The notes under the pieces were generated by a model. That model did no database searches. It worked only from the letters and a program-made list of their open reading frames with translations, and was not told where the DNA came from. A stretch of DNA of 64,000 nucleotides, taken from Myxococcota bacterium (GTDB lineage Bacteria; Myxococcota_A; Bradymonadia; UBA7976; UBA1532). Positions within the stretch are counted from its first letter, which is position 1. Each line of letters starts with the position of its first letter. The translations under genes and the position numbers were made by a program. The stretch is taken from contig JAYZEG010000011.1 of the NCBI GenBank assembly GCA_036337435.1, forward strand, positions 1-64,000. The letters run 5' to 3'. Positions 44,940-63,429 of the stretch are shown one piece after another.

Positions 44940-44956
44940 CTGGCATAGGCGTTGCA
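44940..44956 (+). promoter_or_regulatory. Sigma54 (-24/-12) promoter
   Basis: CTGGCATAGGCGTTGCA: GG-N10-GC with TTGCA, 40 nt upstream of ATG 44997. Confidence 0.72.
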
Positions 44957-44996
44957 ATCCTTGGATTCCATCCGCAGCTCATTCAGAAGGAACACC

Positions 44997-46148
44997 ATGA
45001 TGATGCGCCAACTCTGGTTCTCCCCTATGATTTTATTCATGTCGGTGGGTTGCTCTGACCCGTATCACGACTTCAACTCGCATCCAGACGGGCAGTTTGC
45101 CAACGGATCCCGATTCGTCGACAAGAGTCGCCTTGGGCAAGGGCATGCCTACATCGGCGATGCGTGCTCAATGGGCTGTGTCTGGTCTAAGTATGCCATC
45201 GATGTAGGTGCTCAAAGTCCCACGCACGATTGTTTTGGCGACCGATGTGCTTGTGTGGAATTCGGCAACGTCTATTCAGCGTGCGTCGCCGATGTCGATA
45301 CCGAAGGCCAGCCAAACCCCGACTCTGAGCCGGTCTCGTGGTTTGGAGATGATAACGGACACCAGCCGGGGGTCGGAGATACGTGTGCGATGGGTTGTCT
45401 TTGGTCTGCCTACGCAGTGTCTATGGGTGCTCAATCGCCAACTGAACAATGTGATATAGGGCCGTGTGCCTGTGTTCTCCAGGGTAATATTTGGTTTGAC
45501 TGTCAGTCGTCGGAATCCGGCGGTGCTTGGCGCCCAGACGACGCTGAACCGGCCCCTCCGGCAGCTTCGCCACAGGCAGACTCTCAAGCTGGGCCAGAGT
45601 CCTATTCGAGTCCATCATCTGGTCGGGCCCATGTGCCGTATTTTTGTCAATATCGTAATCAATTACAGGGGTGGGCCACCTGCCAAAATACATCCATTGC
45701 AATGATTTTAGCCAAGCATGGCTGGAGGGGCGTTCCTGATGATATCACTCGGATTTACGGCCGCTTCACCGCACAAAGCCCGAGCGGCCTGGCCAATGTT
45801 TTTAATTTGATGGCCTCGGATGCAGGGCTATCGGTGCGAGCTACACCCGTAACAAATGGACGTTTATCGGAGCTACGTGCAGAGTTATCCGCGGGTCGGC
45901 CAGTGATTATTCACGGCTATTTCACAGCTGGGCATGTGATCGTTGTTACAGGATTTGATTCAAATGGATACTATGTCAATGACCCAGCGGGTCGCTGGAA
46001 CGAGGTTTTTATGGGCGGATATCCGTCGTGGTGTTCTGCGACCGAGGGACAGGGTCTCTATTACTCGAAAGCCGCATTCGAAACCGCTGTGTCCAGAGCG
46101 GAAGATGGCCATACTCAACTCCCCCTGTGGTTTCATAAATTTCGTTAG
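44997..46148 (+). CDS. Lipoprotein with two Cys-rich repeats and a C-terminal C39-like cysteine peptidase
   Basis: Lipobox SVGC; VPYFCQY...TCQNTSIAMIL, GRPVIIHG, AGHVIVVTGFD, YVNDP (Q/C/H/D catalytic set). Confidence 0.85.
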   Translation: MMMRQLWFSPMILFMSVGCSDPYHDFNSHPDGQFANGSRFVDKSRLGQGHAYIGDACSMGCVWSKYAIDVGAQSPTHDCFGDRCACVEFGNVYSACVADVDTEGQPNPDSEPVSWFGDDNGHQPGVGDTCAMGCLWSAYAVSMGAQSPTEQCDIGPCACVLQGNIWFDCQSSESGGAWRPDDAEPAPPAASPQADSQAGPESYSSPSSGRAHVPYFCQYRNQLQGWATCQNTSIAMILAKHGWRGVPDDITRIYGRFTAQSPSGLANVFNLMASDAGLSVRATPVTNGRLSELRAELSAGRPVIIHGYFTAGHVIVVTGFDSNGYYVNDPAGRWNEVFMGGYPSWCSATEGQGLYYSKAAFETAVSRAEDGHTQLPLWFHKFR

Positions 46149-47353: not shown

Positions 47354-47743
47354 GCTGAGGTGCTTTGTCATCGGTTCACCGGGCGGGCAGCCTGCCTCAG
47401 GTGCGTCACGTGTCAACGACCCGGGTGACCACACCCCCATTTGAGCCTGTTTCAGCCCGCGTGGGTTGCGTCTGGTCAGCAGGTGAACGCGAGTTTTCCC
47501 TGACCGACAACCATCATCTCATGTCCTTTGGGGCCTTATCTTGAGCCGATGTCGAGATTGGACCTTCAGACGGTTTTTTGATTTTTGATTTGGCGTTTTT
47601 GTCCGATGGGCATTTCGGATATATTGCAATCTGTTTGGGATTAAACTATCGTCCGGTAGTTTTATGCCGTATGGGCGTCGTAGAGACGTTAGGGGACTTG
47701 AACGATGACAAGACCCAAGACCAGTTGACCAGGAGTATGGACC

Positions 47744-50700
47744 GTGACCCGGGGATGCGCTCTTACCGCTTCGTTCGTAATTGTAATGGCTGGGATGCTG
47801 CATGGCTGCTTATCCGACGCAGGCAACGGGTTGGCCGAAGCACCACCCGCCGCAACCACAGTCAAAATGGACTTCGAAGCACGCCCTCTACCGGAGATCC
47901 CACTGCCCAATGATTTGGCGACCATCTACGATGAGAGTGCTGCGACGAAAAGGCGCATTAATGCTTCGATGCTCGCACCGACTGCACTTGAACGGCGCGT
48001 TCGAGAGAAAGTCGATCAATTGGATGGCTGGGGTATCAACCAGCCAATCACCATTCCATTCACTGGACCCATTGGCATTGAATCTGTTCTCGCAGGCCAC
48101 CGAGATGTTGATTATGACCTGACCAACGACGTGATTTATCTCATTGACGTTGATCCAACATCGCCCGAATTCGGCGAGAAAAAATACCTTGATGTCGGCA
48201 ATGGTAATTATCCTTTCGTGGTCGAGGACTTTGACATTTATGGACCCCATGACCCGCGGGGACAAACGCTGACACTTTTGTTTGAGGAAACCAATGAAGA
48301 TATCAACGGCAATGGTCAGCTCGATCCAGGCGAAGATACCGATATGGATGGTGTCTTAGACAAGCCAAACTATTTTCCAGGTTTAAATCCAGCAGCCGAT
48401 GACTTGAGTGGTCGAGCTGATGCGACCATGACCTTCTATGAGCGCGAGACCGACACGCTGATCGTGCGCCCGATGATGCCACTGCGTGAGCGGACCACGT
48501 ATGCTGTTGTGGTGACCCGCCGGCTTCTCGACCAAGACGGACAGCCCGTTGGATCACCGTTCAAGTTCGTAAATCATACCGGGCAAACGGAGGCTTTGAA
48601 GCGTCTGCCTGACGTTCTGGGACCCGAGTTAGACATCGCAGATGTTGCCTTTGCTTGGAGTTTTACGACGCAGACGGTCGAATCGGGCTGGGTCGCTGTG
48701 CGCGAAGGCTTATATGGACATGGCATTCAGGGGCATTTGGGACGAGATTTTCCGCCCAAGCTTGACTTGGCTGAGCTTAGAGATGTGGCCTATTTTGAGG
48801 GCAGCACGAACCCATTCGTTCTCTACACAGAAAACTGGCTGAATGTATTTAAAACATTCGGACCACAATTGTTTAGCTTCGACGAGTCAGATGACCTCTT
48901 TCAGCGCTTGGCAGAGTCACAGCAATACATTGATTATCATGTCATGGGGAGTTTTGATTCGCCTCAATTATTCGAGCGAGATTATACGTCTCACACACCA
49001 CCGGACTGCGCTGCCTTGTGTTCCCATTTAGCCGAGTGCGCAACACAACGTGAGCTCCCTGCTATCGCCGCCGACTGTGACGCACGTTGTGTCGATTGGA
49101 ATCCCGCTCAACGCGCCTGCCGGGCGGACCGCTGTCAAGCTTTCGAGGACTGCGAGGACGAGTTACCCAGGCTCCCTTATGATGCCCAATCATGGCCCGA
49201 GGACCTTCATTCCAAAGCGGCATCAGCACGACGGGAAAAAGTACACTTTTGGATGGCTGTCCCTCGTAAAGAAGTCTCTCCGCGAAAAGATGGCAAACCA
49301 GCCGGTGTTGTCATCGTGAGTCATGGCTACACCCTAAATCGCGTCGACACGATGATTCCCTTTGCTGGTGAACTGGCCCGTCGAGGCAATGCCGTGATCG
49401 CCATCGACTGTGTCTCCCATGGGCCAATTCCCCTTGAACCAGACGTCGAGACCTTGGCTTCGTCACTCCTGGAGGGCTTTGGCTTGGCCCCACTCATTGA
49501 CGTACTCCTGAACACAAGAGCGGCAGATTTGAATCGAGACGGATCCATCGATTCGGGCGCTGATTTTTGGACATCGTATCTGTTTCACACACGTGATGTT
49601 GTGCGCCAATGCAACCTAGACCATATGCAATTGGTCCGTATTTTAAGGTCTTTCGATGGACTCTTGAAAGATGTCGACTTGGATGGTGATGGCGAGCCTG
49701 AATTGGCCGGTGATTTCGATGGCGATGGTGTTGTGGATGTCGGCGGCCCTGACGTATCCATTGGCATGATCGGCACATCTCTCGGCGGCATCATGTCCGC
49801 CATGCTGGCGGGAACTGAACCTGGCTTGACCGCGTCGGTTCCAGTGGCGGGCGGCGGTATTTTGACCGACATTGGCGTTCGCTCGAATCAGGGCGGCGTC
49901 GTCGAAGCTGTTGTGCTTCGTTTGATGTCGTCCATCTTCATTGGGCAGAGAGACGAAGAAGCCGGCACGACCCGCATACAAACTCTGGTGCCCAATCTCA
50001 ATGATCGGTCATTGTTGGAGCTAGGCGATTGGGATGACCTCGCCCCCGGTCATATCGTACTTGCCGTCAATGTCGACAACGACGAGCGGGTGTGCGCACG
50101 TGTGGATGAGGGCGGAAATTTTCGACTTCAACTAGCTACTGATCTCGATGACCGGATTATTCTGTCTGCTTTTGAACAGGAAATTCCTTGTTTGTGCGAT
50201 ACAGACTGCGTCCCCGACGGAGAGACAGCACTGTCGATTTCGGTGTTTGATACATTGGGCACTGACGTGGTTTTCCAGGGCCAGTCTTTTACACAGGGTC
50301 AGCCGCTGCGGGCTTTTGCAGAAGGCTTGGGCCTTCGCAGAGCATCGCCTGCCCTGCGGCGATTTATGGGCCTTGGTCAGCTGGTCCTCGACCCAGCCGA
50401 CCCGGCGTCGGTTGCACCACACTTCACCGAGCGGCCCATGGTCTTTCCCAATGTGGGTGACCAGACGTCAACGCACACCATCGTTGTGACGACCATGGGC
50501 GATATGAACGTGCCTGCCAGTTCAGGTGTGAGTTTGTCCCGTGCAGCCGGTTACGTGAATTTCCTCGACCCCGACACCGACTATGAAGACACGGTCTTCG
50601 CGGGCAGTCCGCCTAACCAAATTCTGATCGATACTTACGTCGCCGAAGCTGTCCATACCCTGGCTCGTTTTGAAGATGTTGATGGAAATCCAGTGCATTA

Positions 50701-51130
50701 TGACGTTGAAAACTTCAGCCAAGGAGAAGACATCTATGCATCTCGCGAGATTCCACGATTGGATCCACCGCTGAGACTGAAGTTAGATGAAACGGACCCA
50801 ACGGGTGGGGTTTCCGGCGCCATGTTCCTTTTTGTTCATCCCTCTGGTTGGCATGGTTTTGCACTCCCAGGAACCGAACGCGCCCAGGCTCTCTCTGCCT
50901 GCCAAGCCACATGCGCGGATGACGATGATCCGTGCCAAGCGAATTGCCTGACCTATGCCGCCGAGGTCTTTGATGGTGGTGATTTTATGTCTGGTATGAT
51001 CGCCAACTACTTTGCCTCAGGTGGGACTAATTTTCGCACCGATGTGTGCTTGGGTAGAGATAATTGTGAAGGTGATAAACCACCAGTTCCACCCGAACGA
51101 GACATTCCCGAAATGTATGAGATGCCCTGA
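47744..51130 (+). CDS. Large lipoprotein alpha/beta Ser-hydrolase (Pla-1/Cef extracellular lipase-like), paralog A
   Basis: GTG start with AGGAG RBS; lipobox LHGC; PEIPLPND..LDGW, VSHGY, IDCVSHG, TRDVVRQ, GTSLGG, GDMNVP, GWHG; DxDxDG loops. Confidence 0.82.
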   Translation: MTRGCALTASFVIVMAGMLHGCLSDAGNGLAEAPPAATTVKMDFEARPLPEIPLPNDLATIYDESAATKRRINASMLAPTALERRVREKVDQLDGWGINQPITIPFTGPIGIESVLAGHRDVDYDLTNDVIYLIDVDPTSPEFGEKKYLDVGNGNYPFVVEDFDIYGPHDPRGQTLTLLFEETNEDINGNGQLDPGEDTDMDGVLDKPNYFPGLNPAADDLSGRADATMTFYERETDTLIVRPMMPLRERTTYAVVVTRRLLDQDGQPVGSPFKFVNHTGQTEALKRLPDVLGPELDIADVAFAWSFTTQTVESGWVAVREGLYGHGIQGHLGRDFPPKLDLAELRDVAYFEGSTNPFVLYTENWLNVFKTFGPQLFSFDESDDLFQRLAESQQYIDYHVMGSFDSPQLFERDYTSHTPPDCAALCSHLAECATQRELPAIAADCDARCVDWNPAQRACRADRCQAFEDCEDELPRLPYDAQSWPEDLHSKAASARREKVHFWMAVPRKEVSPRKDGKPAGVVIVSHGYTLNRVDTMIPFAGELARRGNAVIAIDCVSHGPIPLEPDVETLASSLLEGFGLAPLIDVLLNTRAADLNRDGSIDSGADFWTSYLFHTRDVVRQCNLDHMQLVRILRSFDGLLKDVDLDGDGEPELAGDFDGDGVVDVGGPDVSIGMIGTSLGGIMSAMLAGTEPGLTASVPVAGGGILTDIGVRSNQGGVVEAVVLRLMSSIFIGQRDEEAGTTRIQTLVPNLNDRSLLELGDWDDLAPGHIVLAVNVDNDERVCARVDEGGNFRLQLATDLDDRIILSAFEQEIPCLCDTDCVPDGETALSISVFDTLGTDVVFQGQSFTQGQPLRAFAEGLGLRRASPALRRFMGLGQLVLDPADPASVAPHFTERPMVFPNVGDQTSTHTIVVTTMGDMNVPASSGVSLSRAAGYVNFLDPDTDYEDTVFAGSPPNQILIDTYVAEAVHTLARFEDVDGNPVHYDVENFSQGEDIYASREIPRLDPPLRLKLDETDPTGGVSGAMFLFVHPSGWHGFALPGTERAQALSACQATCADDDDPCQANCLTYAAEVFDGGDFMSGMIANYFASGGTNFRTDVCLGRDNCEGDKPPVPPERDIPEMYEMP

Positions 51131-51186
51131 AAAAAACTTCAAAAAGACCGTTCAAAGGTGACCGTCAGTCGATACAGCGAGACGAT

Positions 51187-52695
51187 ATGAAACGAATACA
51201 CGCACTCTGCATAGCCCTCTTATTGGTTTGGCCACAGGTCTCTTTCGCCGAAGAACGTGATGCGAACGATCCCTGGCAGGGGCATCTTAGCCTCGAGAGC
51301 GTTCACCAAACGATGGGACCAATTGTTGCCGATGATACAGGGATCCAAGCTGAGTCTGATCGTTGGCTGAGTACGCGTATCATGCTCTCGACTCAGTATC
51401 GTCCCACAAGGAATATTACGCTCCTCGCGGAGGGAGAGCTGCGCGTGTATCGGGCCTTTGATCAAGGCATGGAATTCGGCCTCGACTACGGACACGACAC
51501 CTTTGAATTCGGTCGGCATCAAGATGCGCGAGCAGCCTATTGGATCCCTCGGCAGTTAAGCGTCGAATGGGTTACATCCATCGGACTGTTTCGTTGTGGA
51601 CACCAAAGTGCACACTGTGGAACAGGTTTGCTGGTTCACGATGGCAAGGCAACGCGAATATTTGGCGACGGCTGGACTGGAAATCGTGTTGAGCGATGTG
51701 TTTATGGCGCCAAGGTTGGTGACAATTTGACGTTCTTCGCAGGCGGCGATTATGTTTTTCGAGATGATAATGCTGAACATCTGGAAGGAGACAGAGCGTT
51801 TGGTTGGACACTCGGTTTACGCTACCTCATCACTCAGACCCCATCAAAAGCCAAGCAAAGTGTGGTCTCGCTCTTGTTTGCCCAGCGGTTCCAGGAAGAT
51901 CGGCTTGATCCCAGGCAGCCAGATGGCAAACGGACACAGCTGGATGTCAATTCAATCGATTTTTATCTGAAGTGGGTCTTTCCGTTGACGTCCGGTGCGT
52001 CGTTTCTTCTGGAGTCTGAAATGGCTCTCCTCTTTGGGGAGACGACGCGTCCCTACTTAGAGGAGACATTTGAAGACGGTGCGGAGGTGCTCGCCGCCGG
52101 TGGGGTCATGCGACTCGGCTATCAAGGATCGGGTATCAATGCCACATTAGAGGCCGGGTTCGCATCCGGTGACAATGACCCGCAGGATGCGACCATTCGG
52201 CAATTTACGTTTAATCGTTCGTACACCGTAGGCTTGATTCTGTTCGAGCATGTTCTGCCGGTGGTGACAGCGCGCTCCGTTGATCGCGTAACCGATCCGG
52301 GACTCCTGGACGTGCCACCATCCGGACTTCGGTATACGGTCAATCAGGGCGCAGTGCGCAATGCGCTGTTCCTGTACCCGACATTGTCTTGGAGGCCCGA
52401 TGACCGTTGGTCACTGCGATTTGCCTACCTATTTGCTCAGCGGGCGTCTGATGCGCTGGATGTATATCAATCGGCAATAAATGGCGGTTACAATACATCT
52501 TTGGGAGGTGAACAGCCCGGTGGTCGCATCTTGGGTCAAGAGGTCGACCTTGGCGTCGACTTTGAGCATCGACTCGGTTCACTTGCATACCGCTTGAGTG
52601 TCGATGGAGGCGTCTTCCTCGCAGGCGATGCCTTCTCCGGTCTCATCAATGACCCTGTGTACACGACACGCGTGTCAGTGGGCATCCAATGGTAA
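51187..52695 (+). CDS. Outer-membrane beta-barrel protein (alginate-export-like)
   Basis: Signal peptide ending SFA; amphipathic strands; GFASGD, LGQEVDL motifs; terminal strand TRVSVGIQW ending in aromatic W. Confidence 0.75.
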   Translation: MKRIHALCIALLLVWPQVSFAEERDANDPWQGHLSLESVHQTMGPIVADDTGIQAESDRWLSTRIMLSTQYRPTRNITLLAEGELRVYRAFDQGMEFGLDYGHDTFEFGRHQDARAAYWIPRQLSVEWVTSIGLFRCGHQSAHCGTGLLVHDGKATRIFGDGWTGNRVERCVYGAKVGDNLTFFAGGDYVFRDDNAEHLEGDRAFGWTLGLRYLITQTPSKAKQSVVSLLFAQRFQEDRLDPRQPDGKRTQLDVNSIDFYLKWVFPLTSGASFLLESEMALLFGETTRPYLEETFEDGAEVLAAGGVMRLGYQGSGINATLEAGFASGDNDPQDATIRQFTFNRSYTVGLILFEHVLPVVTARSVDRVTDPGLLDVPPSGLRYTVNQGAVRNALFLYPTLSWRPDDRWSLRFAYLFAQRASDALDVYQSAINGGYNTSLGGEQPGGRILGQEVDLGVDFEHRLGSLAYRLSVDGGVFLAGDAFSGLINDPVYTTRVSVGIQW

Positions 52696-52706
52696 TGGGA
52701 GCCATT

Positions 52707-55700
52707 ATGAAGTTGTTTTATCTGTTGGGACTACTCGTCCTGAGCTTTGGCTGTGGCGACGTGAGTTTTCTGAGCGGAGAAAGAAGCGTTGGTTTGAGCA
52801 AAACAACTCAGGCTGGCGGACCCGTGGTCATTTATGATGTTCTCGCGAAGCCGTTACCGGAAATCCCACTGCCGAATGACCAAGCGACCCGACTGGATCC
52901 AAACTCCATTACCGGACGCCGTCTCAACGTCAGTCAGGATGCACCGACCGCTTATGAACGGCGGGCCAGAGCTGAATTTAATAGCATGGATGGCTTCGGC
53001 ACATACAGCCCCATTACCGTCAGTTTCGATTCGAAGTTAGACATTGTCAAACTCCAGGAGAGACACCTGGACACAGACTTCACAAACGATGCTGTCTATG
53101 TCTTGAACGTCAGTCCTGAATGCCAACGCTTCGGCGAAGAAGTTGGGCTGGACATGGGGCGAGGACGCTTCCCGATTACTCTGTTTAAACGCGAGCGAAT
53201 GAAATTCGACCCCGATGCACCTCATGGCTTTATCATGCAGGGCGGAAACCTATTATTCGACTTTGACAATCAAGGCTTCCTCAACAATTTAATGTACGCG
53301 GAGCTCAATGAACCGGACACCAATGGTGATGGTGTTCTTCAGGTTGATGAGGACCTCGATCAAGACGGTGTAAGAGACAGAGCCAATTTCATTAATCCTG
53401 GCGCGTGTGATTCGAACACGCCCTTTGCGTGCGCTGAGACATGTTCTGACGACAGCTGTTTTCAGGCCTGTCTCTTGGAGCACGACCGCTGTGTAGCGGA
53501 TAATTTAATCAACTTCTATGAATACGAGACGAACACGCTTGTGCTGCGACCGATTTGGCCGCTCGAACAGAAATGCACCTATGCGGTTGTCTTGACCAAG
53601 CGGTTGACAGACGAAGATGACAGACCCGTTGAGTCCCCATTCCCAGGAGTCAACCCTCGGAACCAAACTCAGGCTCTCGAGCCCTTGGCAGGTCTCCTTC
53701 CCAAATACGGATTAGGCCTATCAGATATTGCCTTTGCTTGGACATTTACAACGGGGGACATGACAGGTGACATAGAGGCCATTCGCGCTGGACTCTATGG
53801 CAGCGGTCCATTCGCCCAGTTACAAGCCGATTTCCCAACGGAGACATCCATGACCCTCTGGCCCCTAAACGACTTAACCGAGCTGGAGTATTCTGGGACG
53901 ATGATGGATGGTGCATGCGGAGGTGGCGCGGTCAGTCTCTACTGGAATATCGGTATGGGAGAGTGGGAAGCAAACCTCTGTGCGTTAGAAGCCGACTTAA
54001 GTGGGATGTCCGGTATTTTTGGTGGGACATTTGATGCACCCTATCTCCTGAACGACAAAGATGGTCATGCCACTGAGACCTATCCCGCTGACAACGACGA
54101 AGTATGGCGGATAGACCCCCATAACGGCACCATTGAATACGGGCGCGCTGAGGTCTCATTCTGGTGTAGCCTGCCCATTGAAGCCGATGATTGCCAATCG
54201 GGAAATCCAGAAAATAAGCCGTTTTGTAAACCCTTCCCAACCATTCTTTATGCTCATGGTTATGGCGGAAGTCGTGCTGAAATTGCCAGCCACATGGGTC
54301 GGCACAATTCCATGGGCTACGCCATCTGCGCATTGGATGGACCCGGGCATGGCGGAAACGCGTTAATTCTGAATCCAGATGCCGCCGCCACCTTCGCTGC
54401 AGGCATTGGCTTTTTTGAACAATATTATTCGACGCCGCTCATCGGGATGCTGACTAGAGGACGGGACCGAGACCTCAATAACGATGGGATTCCAGACCCC
54501 GGTGGTGACATGTGGACATCCGACTTGTTCCACACCCGCGACATGGTTCGACAGGCTGCGGTAGAATATATCCAATTCATTCGCATTCTCAGGTCATTTG
54601 GCGAGGGCGGTAATTTGGGGGATTTTACCGGGGATGGAAAAACGGACATTGGTGGACGTGACGGGACCATAGGCATGTGGGGTATTTCTCTCGGTGGCGT
54701 CATTTCAGGTGTCATGGCCGGTGCTGAACCGGGTCTCGACAGCGTGTCTCCGAACGCCGGTGGGGCCGGCCTTTCGGACATCGCGTCTCGCGCCTCTCAG
54801 TCCGGCGTTCCGGAGGCTGTTCTTCTCCCGATTGTTGGGCCATTGATCGCGGGTTGTCTGCCGGTTGACGAACACCAACAACCCTTGGCAGCAGACGTTG
54901 CCACGGAGGCTGATTGTCTCGGCGTTGGTGCGTCAGCAGGTCAGGGCGGCACAATGACCTTCGGTTTTATGGCCAACGACGTTGCCCGGCTGCGCAAGGT
55001 GAAGATCGGTCAGGTTTCTGGTGTGAAACCAGGTGATCGAATCGTCATCAGGAATCTGGTTAATGACGAACATGTCGCGGGTTGGGTGAACGAGCGTGGA
55101 CGAGTCAGACTCGGCATTCCTGCTGATGCGATAGACGCGGTCTCGAGACGGTCCTTGTTGGGATTCGAGGACGGTTCCACCGAGCCACGTCGAGCTGACG
55201 ACCCGACCCAGCTTGGTGATGCGCTTACCATTACAGTTTACGAGGGCGATACGGAGACGGTTCGAGGTGTTGTTGACACCTGGCAGACCGATGTGACGTT
55301 TCAAGGCACCATATACACGGAAGGGACACCCTTGGTCGCTCTGTACGAAGGGTATGGTCTGCCGCGAAATTCGCCACGGTTTAGACGTTTTCTCGGTCTG
55401 GCTCAATCAGGGATTAGTAAAGCCGATCCAGCCATCTGGGGTGTTCACACATTCATGGAACCACTTCAGTTTCCTTATGATCCCAACGGCCGTACACGAG
55501 GCGGTGATACAAAAGTGCTGATGATGCCCACTGCAGGAGATAAGAATGTTCCGGCCAGTGCTGGCATTGCCATGGGGCGGGTCTCTGGTGTCCTCGGATC
55601 ATGGAAACATGATCCGTCCATTCCCAAGGAGCATGGCTGGCGTGAGATCTTCAAGCCTGACCCCCGGTATGGAAAGTCTCCCGATGAGCACTTGATCGAT

Positions 55701-56366
55701 GTATACGCCATCGAAGGAGACGGGAGACTACAGCGTTATTCCGATAATCCCAACAACCCGAATGTCATTTTTGATGTTGATAATGTCAGTGATGGGCGGG
55801 CCTTGTTCTCATGTGGAGACAGTGATTGGAGTGGCCGGAATGGAGAGAATAAATGTCCTGCAGCAGTCAAAGGGTCTGGTCCGGATTGCGCTGCGGATAC
55901 CGATTGCGAAGCCGATGGCGCACGCTGTATCAACGGGTTGTGTGAAGTGTTTTTTCCAATCCCGCGTCCAGAAAGTGGTGGACTTCGCCTGAATTGGGCT
56001 CATCCCGATGGTCGCTTCAATGCCTTTCGACTGCCTCTTCTGCGACCGGCGGGCCAGCATGGGATCTACAACGCCCAATCCTTTCGTGAATTTGATGCAG
56101 ATGCGTACATGGTTAATTTCACAATTCGCTTTCTAGGGACGCGCGGAGCGAAAGTCGATCATGTTGACGGCTGCGATTGCAGCGCGTCAGCACTCCCCAA
56201 TATTACTGTTGATGGACGAGCTGTAAATCCAGCCCTCTTTCTCAAACGCACTGACCAAGTTGATCAGTCGTGTCAAACCTCGGATTTGAAAGTGTGTTCG
56301 TCTGAATGTGCAGCGATTTGGGGGATTAAGACGCCGGTTGAGTCCGCTTGCATCATGCCCAATTAA
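52707..56366 (+). CDS. Large lipoprotein alpha/beta Ser-hydrolase, paralog B
   Basis: ATG 52707 with GGGAG RBS; lipobox SFGC; PEIPLPND..MDGF, YAHGY, LDGPGHG, TRDMVRQ, GISLGG, GDKNVP, GQHG. Confidence 0.82.
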   Translation: MKLFYLLGLLVLSFGCGDVSFLSGERSVGLSKTTQAGGPVVIYDVLAKPLPEIPLPNDQATRLDPNSITGRRLNVSQDAPTAYERRARAEFNSMDGFGTYSPITVSFDSKLDIVKLQERHLDTDFTNDAVYVLNVSPECQRFGEEVGLDMGRGRFPITLFKRERMKFDPDAPHGFIMQGGNLLFDFDNQGFLNNLMYAELNEPDTNGDGVLQVDEDLDQDGVRDRANFINPGACDSNTPFACAETCSDDSCFQACLLEHDRCVADNLINFYEYETNTLVLRPIWPLEQKCTYAVVLTKRLTDEDDRPVESPFPGVNPRNQTQALEPLAGLLPKYGLGLSDIAFAWTFTTGDMTGDIEAIRAGLYGSGPFAQLQADFPTETSMTLWPLNDLTELEYSGTMMDGACGGGAVSLYWNIGMGEWEANLCALEADLSGMSGIFGGTFDAPYLLNDKDGHATETYPADNDEVWRIDPHNGTIEYGRAEVSFWCSLPIEADDCQSGNPENKPFCKPFPTILYAHGYGGSRAEIASHMGRHNSMGYAICALDGPGHGGNALILNPDAAATFAAGIGFFEQYYSTPLIGMLTRGRDRDLNNDGIPDPGGDMWTSDLFHTRDMVRQAAVEYIQFIRILRSFGEGGNLGDFTGDGKTDIGGRDGTIGMWGISLGGVISGVMAGAEPGLDSVSPNAGGAGLSDIASRASQSGVPEAVLLPIVGPLIAGCLPVDEHQQPLAADVATEADCLGVGASAGQGGTMTFGFMANDVARLRKVKIGQVSGVKPGDRIVIRNLVNDEHVAGWVNERGRVRLGIPADAIDAVSRRSLLGFEDGSTEPRRADDPTQLGDALTITVYEGDTETVRGVVDTWQTDVTFQGTIYTEGTPLVALYEGYGLPRNSPRFRRFLGLAQSGISKADPAIWGVHTFMEPLQFPYDPNGRTRGGDTKVLMMPTAGDKNVPASAGIAMGRVSGVLGSWKHDPSIPKEHGWREIFKPDPRYGKSPDEHLIDVYAIEGDGRLQRYSDNPNNPNVIFDVDNVSDGRALFSCGDSDWSGRNGENKCPAAVKGSGPDCAADTDCEADGARCINGLCEVFFPIPRPESGGLRLNWAHPDGRFNAFRLPLLRPAGQHGIYNAQSFREFDADAYMVNFTIRFLGTRGAKVDHVDGCDCSASALPNITVDGRAVNPALFLKRTDQVDQSCQTSDLKVCSSECAAIWGIKTPVESACIMPN

Positions 56367-56480: not shown

Positions 56481-57422
56481 TTGCGAGGTCAATTTATCGT
56501 TTGTATCATCTGTGCCTGGGCCTGTGCCTGTACTGGAAACACTCAGCCTGATTTGTCGAACCACCCCGTTGCTGAAGCGGTGCCATCGCCCTCGTCAGCT
56601 GCCGCTGTGACGAACAAATCAATCGCTGCAGAGGGTCTCCAAAACGAAGTACTTGCCGTCTTGGATCTGCGTACGCTCGAGGAAGCAGGCCGCTTTAGAG
56701 ACTTGGAAAGCCGGCGCGCAGCACCGGTGTCGGATCCTTTTTACAAGCGGGAAAAACCGACGTTCGAAGGCTATGGACTCGCTGATATCTTGGCTTTGTC
56801 CCCGACGTTTCAAACACTCGATCCAAGACGCCATAGCCTGCGTTTCGTTTGTCTTGATGGGTATAAAACGACCTTTTCTTTGGATAGTATACGCGGCGGA
56901 AGGGGCGTGATTGCGACAAAAATTCTGGGGGATGCCCATGTTCCTTGGCCGACTCAGACTCGTGGTAAACAGAAACAAACAGCCGGGCCCTACTACTTGG
57001 TTTGGGATGCTGAAAACTACGATGAAAAGCGTCCATGGCCTTATCAGTTGACTCAAATTGAGTTCATTTCTAATGACGTGGTTGATCGTCGTTTGGGTGG
57101 TCACCTCACGAATATCAATCGTGCGGGGGAGACCCTCTTTCGCACCTATTGCTTGGCGTGTCACTCGGTCAATCTTCAAGGTGGTCAATTAGGCCCTGAA
57201 TTGAATGTTCCAAAAAACATTACCGAGTATCGTTCCCAAGATTATCTCCTCGCATTCATCAAGAACCCGCAGGATTTTAGGGCCGGTAGTGTGATGCCTC
57301 CAAGTCCTTTGAAGACCGATGAGATCAAATCTGTTCTCGCGTATCTCGGTCAGTTAAAGCAATCGAAAGTCTGCGCCAGTGCGTCCCAGTGCAACGATTA
57401 CATGGACTCGTTGAAACAATAG
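56481..57422 (+). CDS. Lipoprotein with oxidoreductase molybdopterin-binding-like domain and monoheme cytochrome c
   Basis: TTG start; lipobox-like ACAC; FEGYGLADIL, FVCLDGY, GPYYLVW; CLACH, GPEL, SVMP (Met ligand). Confidence 0.8.
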   Translation: MRGQFIVCIICAWACACTGNTQPDLSNHPVAEAVPSPSSAAAVTNKSIAAEGLQNEVLAVLDLRTLEEAGRFRDLESRRAAPVSDPFYKREKPTFEGYGLADILALSPTFQTLDPRRHSLRFVCLDGYKTTFSLDSIRGGRGVIATKILGDAHVPWPTQTRGKQKQTAGPYYLVWDAENYDEKRPWPYQLTQIEFISNDVVDRRLGGHLTNINRAGETLFRTYCLACHSVNLQGGQLGPELNVPKNITEYRSQDYLLAFIKNPQDFRAGSVMPPSPLKTDEIKSVLAYLGQLKQSKVCASASQCNDYMDSLKQ

Positions 57423-57569: not shown

Positions 57570-60500
57570 ATGAGACGACTGTATGCGTGTATCTTAGTGC
57601 TGGGTTTGTGTGCGTGCACATCAGACAACCCGGACTTGTCTTTCGATGACCCGAGACAAACCGGGGTAGATGCGATTCTCATGTCGACGGATGGTGCCAT
57701 TCAAACCGATGGGATGAATTCTGCGGTCGGTGATGCTGCTGGACTCGACTTAGATGGCTCCGTCGGTCCGGGAAGCGATGGGTCACAAAGCGAACAGAAC
57801 GACGGCGGTATTCGGGCCGCTGACGGCCGCCCGGCGGACGGGTCCAGCGACAGCACTACACTGGATTCGCAGCTCGCGATTGACATGTCAACCGGCCCGG
57901 ACGGTTCACCGGCCGATGGTCGTGTTGCCCCAGACGGTGTGGTGCCAGTCCTCGACGCCGATGGTGACGGATTCGATGTTGAGAGCGATTGCAATGACGC
58001 GGACGCCACGGTAAATCCGGCCGCCGTGGAGAGCTGCGATGGAATTGATAATGACTGCGATACCATTGTTGATGAGGGGTGGCCTGAGCTTGGGAATGAC
58101 TGTAGCAAAGGCGTAGGGGCGTGCATCAGTGAGGGGCAATTCCAGTGTGCACAAGATGGTAATTCACTGATTTGTGATGCGGTGGTCATCGAACCCGCAG
58201 CCGATATCTGTGACGGAATCGATAACGATTGTGATGGCGTCGTCGACGAAAATGCAGCCAATTGTTGTGAGCCGGGACAGGCCCGTCCATGCGGACAAGA
58301 GGTTGGTCAGTGTCGGCTTGGACGTCAACGCTGTCTGCCTAATGGGCAGTTTGGTGCATGCGTTGGTGCGGAACAAGCTCAAGCCGAGAGCTGTAATGGA
58401 CTCGACGATGATTGTGATGGGGAGAGTGACGAAGGCGTTTTGAATGCGTGTGGAGGTTGTGGTCCTGTTCCCAAGGACATTTGCAACGGGCGTGACGATG
58501 ATTGTGATGGTTCCATCGACGAAGGCGTTCTCAATGCTTGCGGTGGCTGCGGACTTGATCCATCTGAAATATGCGACGACTTGGATAACGACTGTGATGG
58601 CGAGGTCGACGAGGGTGTCATTAACGCATGCGGGTCGTGTGGCGCGGTGCCCACTGAGGTATGCAATCGCCTGGACGATGATTGTGATGGTTCCATCGAC
58701 GAAGGGTTCGCAGTGGATTGTGATGAATGCGAACAGCGGCAACCGGAACGTTGCGATGGGTTAGATAATGATTGCGATGGTGCCATCGATGAAGGTGTTT
58801 TGAATGCGTGTGGAATTTGCGGCGATCTCGCTGACGAAGCATGCAACGGCAATGACGATGATTGCGACGGTGCCACAGATGAAGGTGTCCTCAACGCTTG
58901 TGGCCGATGTGGCCTTGTTCCTGTTGAAACTTGCAATAACCAAGACGACGACTGCGACGGTCAAGTGGATGAGGGTTTCGAGCCTGGCTGCGGTGATTGT
59001 GTTCGCAGCGAACCTGAGCGTTGTGACCGGGTAGACAACGATTGTGATGGCGATATCGACGAAGGTGTTCTGAATGCGTGCGGTGCATGCGGCGATGTGC
59101 CAGCGGAGGTCTGCGACGGTGCAGATAATGATTGCGATGACGATATCGACGAAGGCGTTTTGAATGCGTGCGGTGCGTGCGGCGATGTGCCAGCGGAGGT
59201 CTGCGACGGCGTCGATAATGATTGCGATGACGATATTGACGAAGGCGTTTTGAACGCCTGCGGTGCGTGCGGCGATGTGCCAGCCGAGGTCTGCGACGGT
59301 GCAGATAATGATTGCGACGGCACCATCGACGAAGGCGTTTTGAACGACTGCGGTGCGTGCGGCGATGTGCCAGCGGAGGTCTGCGACGGTGTAGACGATG
59401 ATTGCGACGGCACCATCGACGAAGGCGTTTTGAATGCGTGCGGTGCGTGCGGCGAGGTGCCTGCAGAAGAATGTAATGGGCTTGATGATGACTGTGATGG
59501 TCAGACCGATGAATCTCTCGACTTCTGTGTCGCTTATCTCGGCGTCATCGACGGGCCCGACGGAGGTCTAAGACTCGGTCGAGAACTTCAAGTTATCGGT
59601 GACTTAGATGACGATGGCAACGATGATGTAATCGCTCACGGTCAGCGCAACGGTCAAGGGGTTATCTCCGCTTTGAGTGGGGCATCGAGAGCAGCCATCT
59701 GGACGAGGCGAGGTGATGGACCACTCGGAAACAGTTTGGCTTTGACCGGACCTGACGTACAGGCAGCAGACTTGTTGGCCGGCGCGCCGACAGGGTTTAA
59801 TGGTGCCATTCGTCAATTCGATCGGGCCGGACAACCCGGTGAAATTTTCCGAGGCGACAATGGATTTCGTCTCGGTGATGTCATGACCTCAACACCCGGA
59901 TTATCGGGCCTCGTTTTGGCCGCGCCCGACGTTTCGGGCCGAACGGGGGGACTGCTACATATCCTAAATGATGTGAATACGTATATCGCCGGGGAAACCT
60001 TTGGCCAGCGTTTTGGTGAGAGGGTGTATCTCATACCCGATTTGGATGACGACGGTCGAGCCGACATCATCGCCACTGTCCGTTATCGTCTTAACTTCAG
60101 AAGCGAAAGAGCCACGGTTTACATCGGGAGTTCTAACTGGAATCAACGCAGCGAACAGCTCAGAGCTGGGGATACGGATGCCAGTTTTGGTGAGAGCATC
60201 GCTTGGGGGTCATTTGTACGGCCCAACGAGCTGGTATTTGTCTATGGTGCCCCAGATTATGATGCACCTGGCGTCTCGAATGCGGGTGCTCTATTTGTGG
60301 TCGACCGCCAAGGGCGCTTTTTGACCAGCGCGATTCGTGGTGCTGATGCCGATGGGCGTATCGGACGCAGGATGGCGACCTATCGCCGTCGCGGCGATGG
60401 TCGGGACCGCTTGATCGTTGGCGGCCAAAGCATGGGTCGTATTGAAATCATGCGTTTTGCTGATGTGGGTGGTGTACCCAGTGTTGTCGAGAGAACTCGA

Positions 60501-60641
60501 TTTGCACCCGATGGTGTTGGTCGCTCCTTTGGATTTTCGGTGGCGGTGACGCGCAAGGGACCAGATGGCCGAGCCTGGATGTATGTCGGAGAACCCGATC
60601 GTGGTGACAATGGGGCCGTGCACATCTATTCGATTCGATAG
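57570..60641 (+). CDS. Surface lipoprotein with 15 MopE-like Cys/Asp repeats and a C-terminal FG-GAP/integrin-alpha-like beta-propeller
   Basis: Lipobox LCAC; CDGxDNDCDxxxDEG x15; IGDLDDDGNDDVI, IPDLDDDGRADII, YGAP, FGFSVAV, VGEP..GAVHIY. Confidence 0.88.
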   Translation: MRRLYACILVLGLCACTSDNPDLSFDDPRQTGVDAILMSTDGAIQTDGMNSAVGDAAGLDLDGSVGPGSDGSQSEQNDGGIRAADGRPADGSSDSTTLDSQLAIDMSTGPDGSPADGRVAPDGVVPVLDADGDGFDVESDCNDADATVNPAAVESCDGIDNDCDTIVDEGWPELGNDCSKGVGACISEGQFQCAQDGNSLICDAVVIEPAADICDGIDNDCDGVVDENAANCCEPGQARPCGQEVGQCRLGRQRCLPNGQFGACVGAEQAQAESCNGLDDDCDGESDEGVLNACGGCGPVPKDICNGRDDDCDGSIDEGVLNACGGCGLDPSEICDDLDNDCDGEVDEGVINACGSCGAVPTEVCNRLDDDCDGSIDEGFAVDCDECEQRQPERCDGLDNDCDGAIDEGVLNACGICGDLADEACNGNDDDCDGATDEGVLNACGRCGLVPVETCNNQDDDCDGQVDEGFEPGCGDCVRSEPERCDRVDNDCDGDIDEGVLNACGACGDVPAEVCDGADNDCDDDIDEGVLNACGACGDVPAEVCDGVDNDCDDDIDEGVLNACGACGDVPAEVCDGADNDCDGTIDEGVLNDCGACGDVPAEVCDGVDDDCDGTIDEGVLNACGACGEVPAEECNGLDDDCDGQTDESLDFCVAYLGVIDGPDGGLRLGRELQVIGDLDDDGNDDVIAHGQRNGQGVISALSGASRAAIWTRRGDGPLGNSLALTGPDVQAADLLAGAPTGFNGAIRQFDRAGQPGEIFRGDNGFRLGDVMTSTPGLSGLVLAAPDVSGRTGGLLHILNDVNTYIAGETFGQRFGERVYLIPDLDDDGRADIIATVRYRLNFRSERATVYIGSSNWNQRSEQLRAGDTDASFGESIAWGSFVRPNELVFVYGAPDYDAPGVSNAGALFVVDRQGRFLTSAIRGADADGRIGRRMATYRRRGDGRDRLIVGGQSMGRIEIMRFADVGGVPSVVERTRFAPDGVGRSFGFSVAVTRKGPDGRAWMYVGEPDRGDNGAVHIYSIR
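59061..59460 (+). repeat. Near-identical 90-bp in-frame tandem repeat (about 4.4 copies)
   Basis: Units start at 59061, 59151, 59241, 59331 and 59421 (gaagg[c/t]gtt...), encoding EGVLNACGACGDVPAEVCDGxDNDCDxxID. Confidence 0.92.
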
Positions 60642-60643
60642 GT

Positions 60644-63196
60644 CTAGAATGTTCCGTGGGCACCAATGGTGGGTAAGATATATTTCACTGGACTCTCACC
60701 CGCTTCGATTTGCTCGCCTTGATAGGTTAGGTTGATGATGTCGACATAAAAATCAACCTGATATGTGTCTTCTACCCAAAGGAAGTCGAAACGGAGATCT
60801 GCCTGAAAATAGCCATCCAGGCGGGTGTTTGATGACAGATCGAATCGTCCGGAATTGTAGTGTAAGCGCGTCCCCAGTATATAATCCTGACCAAGACGAT
60901 ACGAGATCACCAGGTTTGCTATGTGAGTTTGGTCTAGGGGGTCGATGACCCATTGGTTCCCGACACGGCGCTCAATGCGTTGGAGCGTATAGGCTAACCA
61001 TCCAAACACGCGCGATGTACGCTGTTTGCGAAGCATGATTTCTGTTCCGAATGCCCGGCCCGCCTGTAAGGGAATGCGAAATGTTTCCGAGCTCTCGCCC
61101 AAGTCCATGGTGTCTTCACGTTCATCTCCATCGTCATCTTCAAATCGAGTTGAAATGAGATTCTTTCGATAGGCAAAGTAGCTGGTGATGTCCATCGAGT
61201 AGCCGCTTTCAAATCCCTGCTCGACGCCTATGGCCACCTGCCGAGATTGTTGGAGCGGACTCGAGAGTTCAAGATCCCCCAACCCGGGGACGGGTAAAAA
61301 AAATCGCTGCTGAGCGTGCGCGACGCCAACGTGTGCTTTAAGAGCCCGGTTTGGCGTCTGCTGAAATCGGAGGCCTACCCGTGGGTCGATGCCAGTTCTA
61401 TCGACGTTTCGATAGTAGTCGAAGCGTGCGCTCGGATTGAGTTGCCATCGATCTTGGGTGAAGGTTATGGAATGGTAGCCACCCACGATATATTTTGGTT
61501 CGTTGGGGCTGATAAAGTTGAATGCCTCAAAACCGTCATTCTGGTCAGCTGTGGTACTGGCTTGATTCACCGTCGGCCGAACTTCTAAATCTACACCCGT
61601 CTCGATGGACAGCGATTCGGACACATCCGATGACCAGCTGATTCGAGGTCGAATGCTATATTCTCTCAGGCCGTCAATCTGGGTGTCCCCCTCTTCATCT
61701 GCCTCAACATCGGCCTCGTCAGCAGGTGTAATCATCCGGTCTGCACCGAGGTCAAGCCCGAAGGAAACTCGATGACGACCGACCGGGATGGTGTATTGAA
61801 CATTAAACCGATGGAAGTCGACCATGAATCGATTCTTTGCATCGCGTCCATCACCAATTTCATCTTGGGCACCAAAGACGGTCAGTTTGAGTTGATGTCG
61901 GTTCTTGAAGCGATGGTCGATTCGCGCCAGATAGTCCCAGAAGTTTAGGTAGGCATCCGATGAAACGAGCGTCAATAAAAGGCCAGTATAGCTATACCGA
62001 CCACCAAGAGTAATCCGCGTAGACCCGTCATTGACTGGAATCGATAAGAGTGCACCTGTTTGGAATAGATTGATATCCAGGTCTCCAACCCAATAATCCT
62101 TTTCGGCGACACGGGTTTTCGCTTCCACAATTCCGCCCAGAAAACGTCCGTTGCGCACTGGGGCAACACCTGGATAAAAGTCGACTTGGTCGACGAGTTG
62201 CGGGTGGATCACGCTGGTTCCGATCCCAAGATGGAACAAAAGTGGAATCGACGTCCCATCCACAAAGTAGCCCGTATCTCCAGGGGGGGCACCGCGTACG
62301 ATGGGAAATGGAAGAAAATTTGTAAAACTGCCCACGCCGGGGAGTGACTGAATGACCCGGAGTGGATCCCCCATCGTGCCTGCAACATGGGTTAATTCGA
62401 ATCGATCGAGACTCACACGTTGAGTTTCCCGTTGTTGTCTGCCAAACACGACCATTGAAGAGGCATCCAGGTTCTCTGGTGTAATCAGCCAATCAGGTAG
62501 ACTTAAAGGCTCATCACTTACTTCAATGGCTCGAGTGACGTTTAAGTATGCGTCGTCCTCGATAAACGCTTTATAGGCACCGGGTGGTAAGCTGACCGTG
62601 AAACGCCCGTCGAGACCTGAAAAGGCTTCAAAGTTGCCTGGCTCAAACCGAATCACTATGCCGGCCAAGACCCTTCGAATTCCGCGACTCATGATGCGTC
62701 CATCAACTTGGCTTAAGCGGACTTTGTTCTCGGTATTTTTCTTTGCTGGCTCGTCTTGGACGACTGGAGCATTAAAAATCCAAGTCACCTTCATTTTGGT
62801 GGTGATCGCTTTACCGGACTGCGTTGCAGGTTCAAATCGCCAGAATGGTAAAGTTTCTCGAAAGGCTGTGAAAAACTCAACGGGATCGGAGCCAACATGT
62901 TCCGCGTTTGACACATGGCCACTCTCATCGATGGTCAGCATCACAATTGTACGGCCCTTGACGATGCCTGAAGCCTGTAAAGTCGATGGGAACGCAGGTT
63001 CCCTATGCTCAATCAATTTCGGAGGTTCGATACTTTGACTGAGTGGTTTATCTGACGCCAGCGGCTTGACTTTTGATGAGTCATTTTCGTGTTTGCTAGG
63101 TTTTGTGGGCTGCTGACTGGGCTTGCCATGCGCGACGGACAGAAGAACCATCCCGGCCATCACGAGTCGTGCGTTGAATTCCGATCTTAGCAACAT
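60644..63196 (-). CDS. TonB-dependent receptor with fused N-terminal TonB-C domain and carboxypeptidase-regulatory-like domain
   Basis: PPKLI...LTIDESGHV...WRFEPA (TonB-C); GDPLRVIQSLPGV, GAPPGDTGYFVDG..IPLLFH (plug); IDPRVGLR, AFGTE, GWLAYT; C-terminal F. Start probably 63196. Confidence 0.9.
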   Translation of the reverse strand: MLLRSEFNARLVMAGMVLLSVAHGKPSQQPTKPSKHENDSSKVKPLASDKPLSQSIEPPKLIEHREPAFPSTLQASGIVKGRTIVMLTIDESGHVSNAEHVGSDPVEFFTAFRETLPFWRFEPATQSGKAITTKMKVTWIFNAPVVQDEPAKKNTENKVRLSQVDGRIMSRGIRRVLAGIVIRFEPGNFEAFSGLDGRFTVSLPPGAYKAFIEDDAYLNVTRAIEVSDEPLSLPDWLITPENLDASSMVVFGRQQRETQRVSLDRFELTHVAGTMGDPLRVIQSLPGVGSFTNFLPFPIVRGAPPGDTGYFVDGTSIPLLFHLGIGTSVIHPQLVDQVDFYPGVAPVRNGRFLGGIVEAKTRVAEKDYWVGDLDINLFQTGALLSIPVNDGSTRITLGGRYSYTGLLLTLVSSDAYLNFWDYLARIDHRFKNRHQLKLTVFGAQDEIGDGRDAKNRFMVDFHRFNVQYTIPVGRHRVSFGLDLGADRMITPADEADVEADEEGDTQIDGLREYSIRPRISWSSDVSESLSIETGVDLEVRPTVNQASTTADQNDGFEAFNFISPNEPKYIVGGYHSITFTQDRWQLNPSARFDYYRNVDRTGIDPRVGLRFQQTPNRALKAHVGVAHAQQRFFLPVPGLGDLELSSPLQQSRQVAIGVEQGFESGYSMDITSYFAYRKNLISTRFEDDDGDEREDTMDLGESSETFRIPLQAGRAFGTEIMLRKQRTSRVFGWLAYTLQRIERRVGNQWVIDPLDQTHIANLVISYRLGQDYILGTRLHYNSGRFDLSSNTRLDGYFQADLRFDFLWVEDTYQVDFYVDIINLTYQGEQIEAGESPVKYILPTIGAHGTF

Positions 63197-63429
63197 GAAT
63201 GGTGGCGTCCAGTCGACAAATAACAGAGATGAAGTACATTGTGTTTCGATGAGGAGACAACTCAAAACGTCTCTGGAAGACCGATTACAAGGCCACGGAC
63301 GCGTCACTTCGCATTGTCATACCCTTGCTCATTAAAGCAAACGTCTATATTCCGTGTCTGAGATCGTATAGACCAAGACAGGCGTTATGCCCTAGGTTGA
63401 CAGACACCCCCATTGGTGGAGACGACGGG

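Follow-up and report, generated by a model that had tools for sequence, protein, structure and literature searches.

The window considered here is the whole stretch of DNA that was analysed, 64,000 nucleotides from a Myxococcota bacterium (GenBank assembly GCA_036337435.1, contig JAYZEG010000011.1, positions 1 to 64,000 of the forward strand). Three open reading frames (ORFs) in one direction occupy positions 47744-56366 and encode, in order, hydrolase A, an outer-membrane barrel, and hydrolase B. The layout given in a preliminary description of this DNA (1128, 502, and about 1219 amino acids (aa), with intergenic gaps of 56 nt between A and the barrel and 11 nt between the barrel and B) was confirmed, and its proposal that A and B are lipoprotein serine hydrolases with a conserved Ser-Asp-His set was supported. 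The unit that is conserved across genomes is the pair formed by a barrel gene and the hydrolase gene that follows it, not the triple. The features of the locus, all on the + strand, are as follows.

47731..47735 (+): AGGAG ribosome-binding site of A, 8 nt before the GTG start (sequence reading)
47744..51130 (+): hydrolase A, orphan of lineage III, 1128 aa, GTG start (ORF, AlphaFold model, tree)
47807..47809 (+): Cys22 of A, predicted lipobox cysteine (LHGC), at least 90% conserved in 49 homologs
48998..49159 (+): Cys-rich insertion of A, spanning residues about 419-472 (BLASTP alignment) and helical in the model at 422-471
49322..49327 (+): His527-Gly528 of A, putative oxyanion-hole HG, invariant; after strand 520-526 (DSSP) and aligned to the HG of 9bd4
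49778..49780 (+): Ser679 of A, putative nucleophile, GTSLGG, invariant; between strand 673-678 and helix 680-691 (DSSP) and aligned to the GxSxG of 9bd4 and 7e04
50501..50503 (+): Asp920 of A, GDMNVP, invariant; after strand 911-916 (DSSP)
50852..50854 (+): His1037 of A, GWHG, invariant; after strand 1025-1028 (DSSP)
51187..52695 (+): outer-membrane barrel of lineage I, AlgE-like, 502 aa, 18 predicted strands (Pfam, AlphaFold, Foldseek)
52165..52362 (+): long loop of the barrel, residues about 327-392, between strands 13 and 14, with helix 352-369 (conserved columns; DSSP)
52697..52701 (+): GGGAG ribosome-binding site of B, 5 nt before the ATG at 52707 (sequence reading)
52707..56366 (+): hydrolase B of lineage I, cognate to the barrel, 1219 aa (ORF, 50-sequence alignment, tree)
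52752..52754 (+): Cys16 of B, predicted lipobox cysteine (SFGC), invariant in 50 homologs
54255..54260 (+): His517-Gly518 of B, putative oxyanion HG, invariant in 50 homologs
54687..54689 (+): Ser661 of B, putative nucleophile, GISLGG, invariant in 50 homologs
55539..55541 (+): Asp945 of B, GDKNVP, invariant in 50 homologs
56058..56060 (+): His1118 of B, GQHG, invariant in 50 homologs

The GTG at 47744, with AGGAG ahead of it, yields a normal lipoprotein signal for A; one public protein record begins A at residue 15 (ATG), which would cut off most of the signal peptide. The open frame of B spans 52689-56366, and an earlier ATG at 52689 is also in frame; the ATG at 52707, preceded by GGGAG at 5 nt, is the likely start and gives the 1219-aa product. 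Promoter and terminator scans returned sites no more numerous than in shuffled sequence, and an Rfam scan of the window gave no match. Near 51130, contigs of three DNA runs are one base shorter in the A-run that follows the stop codon of A (tgaaaaaaaa); this deletion leaves the stop codon itself intact.

The hydrolases and their lipase kinship

A and B align end to end over 1087 columns (33% identity, E 7e-141, BLASTP), which bears out the earlier view that they are collinear paralogs. The motifs read from the DNA are HGC/LS, SHGY, GTSLGG, GDMNVP, and GWHG in A, and FGC/GD, AHGY, GISLGG, GDKNVP, and GQHG in B. The Ser-Asp-His set and the HG motif are retained in both enzymes, as had been claimed: Ser679/Asp920/His1037 and His527-Gly528 of A are invariant in 49 aligned A-type homologs, and Ser661/Asp945/His1118 and His517-Gly518 of B are invariant in 50 aligned B-type homologs. 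The Cys-rich insertions also lie at differing positions, as described (about residues 419-472 in A and about 240-270 in B, the latter numbered from the ATG at 52689); each segment is without a counterpart in the other paralog by BLASTP, and DxDxDG-like loops are visible in both translations. Both N-termini carry a signal peptide and a lipobox cysteine (LHGC in A, SFGC in B), which at least 90% of the 49 A-type sequences and all 50 B-type sequences share; a lipobox-like motif occurs within the first 45 residues of 163 of 231 homologs that begin with M.

In the AlphaFold model of A (predicted local distance difference test (pLDDT) 88.8, predicted template-modelling score (pTM) 0.91), secondary-structure assignment with DSSP places the HG motif after a strand, the serine at a strand/helix elbow, and the aspartate and histidine after the last two core strands. 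As modelled, A therefore has the nucleophile elbow, the HG after strand 3, and the order Ser-Asp-His that define an α/β-hydrolase. Of the triad geometry that the preliminary description proposed to check, the canonical secondary-structure positions in the model of A agree with the assignment. Small α/β-hydrolases fit residues 397..1095 of the model (VIA-align, Z 17-19), an example being 4ao8, of which 225 of 234 residues superpose (root-mean-square deviation 2.7, Z 17.4); because these small enzymes superpose nearly whole on this region, the core of A would hold roughly 450 residues of insertions. Sequence searches against solved structures found nothing below E 0.5 with A alone; the A-type profile gave weak matches to α/β-hydrolases only (best 5.7e-5), in which HG and GxSxG align with those of solved serine esterases (both motifs in 9bd4, GxSxG in 7e04). 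Foldseek with the whole model returned no more than local matches, about 210 columns long, at E 1e-4 or weaker.

Among NCBIfam models the only sizeable match is TIGR03502, the VolA/Pla-1 family, which scores 62.6 bits on A (E 2e-17), 47.1 bits on B (E 1e-12), and 39-62 bits on relatives from lineages II and III (described below); the model positions matched are 7-106, at the N-terminus, and 441-565, from HG to GxSxG. Pfam Lipase_bact_N (PF12262) matches A marginally (23.2 bits, cut-off 22.3) and does not match B. The likeness to Pla-1/Cef-type lipases in the preliminary description is supported, as a distant one: TIGR03502 is the best curated relative, Lipase_bact_N is limited to A and marginal there, and both proteins lie far under the family cut-off. 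Judged by these scores the hydrolases are distant, sub-threshold relatives of the VolA/Pla-1 phospholipases. A lipase reading draws on this kinship, on Atlas neighbour clusters that bear Lipase_bact_N, Big_5, and PAF-AH_p_II (a lead only), and on a single case of a neighbouring lipase chaperone gene. In that case, the gene at L157:3479-5350 (on G018:C37), immediately ahead of a barrel-less hydrolase gene, has a Lipase_chap (Lif-type lipase foldase) domain. The Lipase_chap domain is present in only 2 of 41 related genomes, one instance adjoining a hydrolase gene, and the upstream ORFs of two other barrel-less hydrolases are dissimilar; Lif-type chaperones were therefore rejected as general companions, and the case is anecdotal.

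The window genome also encodes three smaller proteins that match TIGR03502 (C16:19080-21470, C24:53691-54092, and C26:41225-43216, in open frames of 664-813 aa). Two of the three outscore A and B on single-stretch scores, still far under the cut-off, and these proteins may be closer to ordinary VolA-like lipases.

The barrel and its conserved pairing with a hydrolase

The barrel has a Sec signal at residues 1-21 and ends in ...GIQW; its AlphaFold model (pLDDT 90.7, pTM 0.89) is an 18-stranded barrel with its short turns and its long loops on opposite sides. Pfam Alginate_exp (PF13372) matches residues 391-483 only, at 27.8 bits with a cut-off of 25.2, and no other Pfam family matches. With an Alginate_exp score above the gathering threshold and 18 strands, the assignment of the middle gene as an outer-membrane barrel is upheld, and this barrel is tied to the hydrolases. 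AlgE is the top Foldseek match of the model (E 2e-16, TM 0.55-0.66, 12-14% identity), followed by Campylobacter MOMP and by chitoporins and Occ/OprD channels, the last two types at E 1e-11 to 1e-9. A search for Toluene_X/FadL (PF03349) gave no match at E up to 0.1, and a solved-structure sequence search with the barrel, alone or as a profile, gave none. FadL/Toluene_X proteins are 14-stranded barrels with an N-terminal hatch; the model of the window barrel points to an 18-stranded AlgE-like channel, not a FadL-like one. Many of the invariant and near-invariant columns between G324 and R382 cluster in the longest loop (residues about 327-392). TIGR04551, a barrel family of NCBIfam, shows a partial likeness within this conserved loop (residues 324-361, 43.1 bits, cut-off 300), a score at which the window barrel is not placed in that family; six of seven other barrels, from different clades, score 38-80 bits, and the seventh (L053, lineage III) has no NCBIfam match.

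Forty-one related genomes were surveyed, 36 of which were matched by the barrel query and 33 by the hydrolase query. The barrel set comprises 71 ORFs, from 68 of 76 places fetched and three in the window genome; the five places outside the set are four matches cut by contig starts and one further place (G015:C237). Downstream partners were called with hidden Markov models built from the alignments of this analysis. A hydrolase gene begins 3-297 nt past the barrel stop codon in 41 of the 71, another gene follows in 26, and four lie at contig edges. In an independent sample, the 62 best A-type loci of public species-level genomes, a barrel gene immediately precedes the hydrolase in 53, two loci are at contig edges, and seven have no barrel there; two of these seven belong to the genus of the window genome and have the barrel downstream. 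The hydrolase-barrel-hydrolase order occurs in 3 of the 41 genomes, all in that genus (three of its four genomes); in the fourth, the contig extends 1.7 kb upstream of the barrel and shows no A-type match there. The three-gene unit of the preliminary description thus gives way to the barrel-hydrolase pair as the conserved arrangement. As to whether barrel homologs usually occur without hydrolases, a point on which that description had staked its proposal, the answer differs by breadth: it is no in the clade of the window barrel, where seven of eight have a hydrolase and one is at a contig edge, and partly yes in the wider family, where 26 of 71 have other partners.

At least three barrels are encoded in the window genome, on C11 (the window contig), C31, and C71, and a hydrolase gene comes after every one of them. 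A wholly internal fragment of a further hydrolase, 877 aa with both ends open (C65:2-2632), brings the genome to at least five hydrolase genes of this family. The genes upstream of 16 other pairs belong to unrelated Pfam families or to none, and not to polysaccharide synthesis; since the 16 upstream ORFs are also unrelated to each other, a constant third gene upstream of the pair was ruled out. No barrel-hydrolase fusion was found among 440 proteins.

The history of the pair was examined with quick IQ-TREE trees (LG+G4). The barrel tree holds 66 rows, since five of 71 covered less than 380 profile positions and were dropped; the hydrolase tree holds 37 rows, eight of 45 having been dropped for short coverage, and for three of its rows the barrel lineage was assigned by BLAST, not by tree. 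Hydrolase-linked barrels form four well-supported lineages, I-IV; lineage I, which includes the window barrel, consists of seven barrels with a hydrolase and one at a contig edge, with Shimodaira-Hasegawa-like approximate likelihood-ratio (SH-aLRT) support of 100. Partner labels require 8 changes on the barrel tree (23.1 when shuffled), and the four barrel-lineage labels require 4 changes on the hydrolase tree, the minimum possible (19 when shuffled). Across four old lineages the barrel tree and the hydrolase tree match, which implies that the pair was duplicated and inherited as a unit several times.

The hydrolase tree also bears on the origin of A, which is the sister of all hydrolases of lineage-III barrels (support 100). 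The gene that precedes A is a divergent zinc-ADH-like oxidoreductase, not a barrel, and the window genome keeps an ordinary lineage-III pair on C71; from these three observations A is best read as an orphan copy that recently joined the lineage-I operon. On the evidence of the sequences A appears to have lost its own barrel and to have been placed ahead of the lineage-I pair.

Eight other barrel partners were examined, of which five are giant TPR proteins and three are PMT_2 glycosyltransferase-like membrane proteins; the TPR partners, in open frames of 1082-2161 aa, follow barrels L012-L014, L017, and L018, and the PMT_2 partners follow L011, L015, and L016. In a distant barrel clade all seven barrels (L078-L083 and L085, from genomes G007, G011, G030, G031, G032, G034, and G038) are followed by a Cys-rich lipoprotein of 345-401 aa with a conserved C-x-Y-x-P-P motif immediately after the lipobox; the one of these lipoproteins that was tested against NCBIfam gave no match. 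A barrel-binding N-terminal module common to these lipoproteins and the hydrolases was rejected at the sensitivity of hhalign, which gave a probability of 1.4%. FadL-family genes (G016:C5:46853-47983 and G023:C13:34642-35763) lie directly upstream of two lineage-IV barrels, L050 and L047, which have no hydrolase partner.

Possible roles of the pair

Among described systems, fadL-volA of Vibrio cholerae (vca0862-vca0863) comes closest; in it the barrel gene lies upstream at a gap of 16-23 bp and is co-transcribed with its neighbour, and VolA is a surface-exposed lipoprotein lysophospholipase that supplies fatty acids to FadL; the route of VolA to the cell surface is stated there to be unknown (PMC3656444). 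The preliminary description knew of no account of the three-gene unit; fadL-volA is a described analogue. As in fadL-volA, a barrel gene lies directly ahead of a gene for a lipoprotein α/β-hydrolase (here at 11 nt), and as in VolA and Pla-1 the hydrolases join a lipobox to an HG...GxSxG core alignable with the family model; an N-terminal region like Lipase_bact_N is seen in A at a marginal score. The differences are that the hydrolases are longer (about 1050-1230 aa, against about 800 for VolA/Pla-1; model length 790) and carry Cys-rich and Ca-loop-like insertions, that the barrel is 18-stranded and AlgE-like and not a FadL homolog, that the hosts are Myxococcota and neighbours instead of Vibrio, and that the activity and surface exposure described for VolA are putative here. 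Literature searches, whose coverage lay outside subscription journals, found no description of this barrel-hydrolase pair.

Two further types of channel invite comparison. The window barrel resembles AlgE in its 18 strands, its best Foldseek match, and its marginal Pfam match, but differs in that no alginate or other polysaccharide genes lie near the window cassette or upstream of the 16 other pairs, and in that its partner is a hydrolase lipoprotein, whereas the partner of AlgE is the TPR lipoprotein AlgK. Occ/OprD channels and chitoporins are single-gene uptake channels of 16-18 strands; they form the second tier of structural matches, weaker than AlgE, and bring no sequence-family match.

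The most likely reading, to which about an even chance is given, is a VolA-like module for the acquisition of esters or lipids at the outer membrane. An AlgE-like channel and its cognate disulfide-rich lipoprotein serine hydrolase, of which B is the example in the window, form a two-gene cassette conserved in Myxococcota and neighbours. The hydrolases would be outer-membrane-anchored esterases of the lipase or phospholipase kind, as their distant relationship to VolA/Pla-1 suggests, and each enzyme would work with its own channel in nutrient acquisition. At the outer membrane the enzyme would hydrolyse an ester from outside the cell, most likely a (lyso)phospholipid or other acyl ester, and the adjacent channel would pass the product or the substrate across the membrane, after the logic of fadL-volA; A probably shares the barrel of B or uses none.

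Several observations weigh against this reading. Neither A nor B reaches the TIGR03502 cut-off of 383.9 bits, and the match leaves the Asp/His half of both proteins uncovered. The structural neighbours of A, at near-equal Z, include CE7 acetyl-xylan and feruloyl esterases, monoglyceride lipases, S9 peptidases, and PETases, so the fold alone does not indicate a lipase. A lumen of the AlgE/Occ type would be better matched to a polar solute than to a hydrophobic one, and a role of the barrel as stand-in for a missing FadL is ruled out, since all 41 related genomes have FadL-family genes elsewhere (the window genome with 9 match rows). Ten hydrolase loci with no nearby barrel match, fetched with about 5 kb on each side, contain no barrel-family ORF (0/10 at E up to 0.01) and so have no barrel within 13 kb; in one family of related genomes (f6), the five matches of the barrel query are three best ones linked to PMT_2, one of the distant clade, and one not fetched. 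Because barrel-less hydrolases exist, the enzyme is not strictly dependent on the barrel. The TPR and PMT_2 partners of other barrels look like signs of polymer export, of the AlgK/AlgE kind, in those clades. The mirrored trees show a long-kept linkage, not by themselves physical contact or a joint mechanism; operon duplication as such yields mirrored trees. Activity, substrate, side of the cell, and the role of the barrel are all inferred. The uses put forward in the preliminary description, prey-membrane digestion with either display of the lipoproteins or import of their products by the barrel, are conjectural too.

The strongest alternative, though an unlikely one, is that the barrel serves as a docking or surface-exposure partner that holds or carries the hydrolase, in the manner of Slam, LptD-LptE, or AlgE-AlgK, and conducts no small molecule. 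Such a role would be consistent with strict one-to-one lineages of barrel and hydrolase and with several pairs per genome (three in the window genome), with the clustering of many conserved barrel columns in a single long loop predicted to be extracellular, and with the distant clade, in which a barrel is again followed by a lipoprotein (7/7); the path of VolA itself to the surface is stated to be unknown (PMC3656444). The barrel-less hydrolases weigh against an obligatory translocon: all ten loci are without a barrel nearby, and family f6 is without a confirmed barrel of the hydrolase-linked type. Nor are barrel and hydrolase fused in any of the 440 proteins, the small lipoprotein partners and the hydrolase N-terminus are unlike each other by hhalign, and Alginate_exp is the only Pfam match on the barrel. 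A more specific form of the idea is judged improbable: a surface-display system for lipoproteins in Myxococcota, unrelated to Slam or to the Bacteroidota export signal, in which the AlgE-like barrels of each lineage dock or translocate the giant lipoprotein enzymes of that lineage, several barrel-enzyme pairs work in parallel in a cell, and A is a second client of the barrel of B.

Export of a surface polymer is considered doubtful to a greater degree. Here the barrel would secrete a polysaccharide that the outer-membrane lipoprotein hydrolase, as a periplasmic esterase or deacylase, would trim beforehand, much as PgaB trims its polymer before export via PgaA. AlgE, the best structural match, is itself an exopolysaccharide exporter, sister barrel clades are linked to giant TPR proteins (5/8) and PMT_2 proteins (3/8), and the best structural neighbours of A include CE7 acetyl-xylan esterases. 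The window, however, has no synthase, glycosyltransferase, or other polysaccharide gene beside the cassette, the genes upstream of the 16 other pairs are unrelated to polysaccharide synthesis, and the curated sequence relatives of the hydrolases are lipases only. Very improbable is a role of the hydrolases as S9/S15/S33-like peptidases whose released peptides enter via the channel: Peptidase_S15 matches near the nucleophile (E 0.05 and 0.01) and S9 acylaminoacyl and prolyl peptidases appear among the structural neighbours (Z about 16-17), but the Pfam matches are under the cut-off and confined to the nucleophile elbow, the N-terminal domain and the segment from HG to Ser match lipase families, and the β-propeller domain typical of S9 enzymes is not reported.

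The barrel-hydrolase cassette is itself real, widespread, and unannotated, with no curated model reaching its cut-off apart from the marginal Pfam matches given above. If the VolA-like reading is true, lipids or other esters would be harvested at the outer membrane by many Myxococcota of sea and soil, a group with many predators, by way of a channel type known until now chiefly from polymer export. The several natural barrel-enzyme pairs in one genome offer material for studying how a large lipoprotein and a channel cooperate.

Distribution and neighbouring genes

Among 1.84 billion cluster representatives, the A-type profile matches 494 at E up to 1e-30 (clusters at 50% identity), 1509 at 1e-10, and 3346 at 1e-3, and the species-level genomes contain 677 confirmed hydrolase stretches. 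The metagenome-assembled genome (MAG) labels of the matches are Myxococcota, Bradymonadia, Polyangiaceae, Myxococcales, Haliangium, Candidatus Binatia, and a few doubtful ones; where the source name goes beyond a bare MAG label, it reads 'hypothetical', 'dienelactone hydrolase', or 'pimeloyl-ACP methyl ester carboxylesterase'. The stretch itself is found in marine and seawater metagenomes of 12 studies. In one metatranscriptome, four contigs with at least 99% identity lie inside A, the barrel, and B, covering 6 of 30 bins and bridging no gene junction; these RNA contigs are a weak sign of expression in situ, and DNA carry-over is possible.

Around the cassette the window encodes GGT, a C39-like peptidase, the zinc-ADH-like oxidoreductase mentioned above, a cytochrome c lipoprotein, and a MopE-repeat protein. 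The peptidase gene (44952-46148, +) encodes a secreted Cys-rich protein with a C39-like/C70 papain-like peptidase domain. The cytochrome gene (56481-57422, +), which begins 114 nt after B, encodes a protein of 313 aa that begins like a lipoprotein and has a cytochrome c domain at its C-terminus. It is followed by a gene (57570-60641, +) for a predicted lipoprotein of 1023 aa with a long MopE-type Cys-rich repeat array (PF11617, 194 bits) and a C-terminal region that looks FG-GAP-repeat-like by eye; GC skew is strongly positive around this gene. On the opposite strand, 60644-63307 (-) encodes an 887-aa protein whose residues 103-179 form a TonB C-terminal domain; with its weak match to Plug and its extended C-terminal part, it is apparently a TonB_C domain fused to a TonB-dependent-receptor-like protein.

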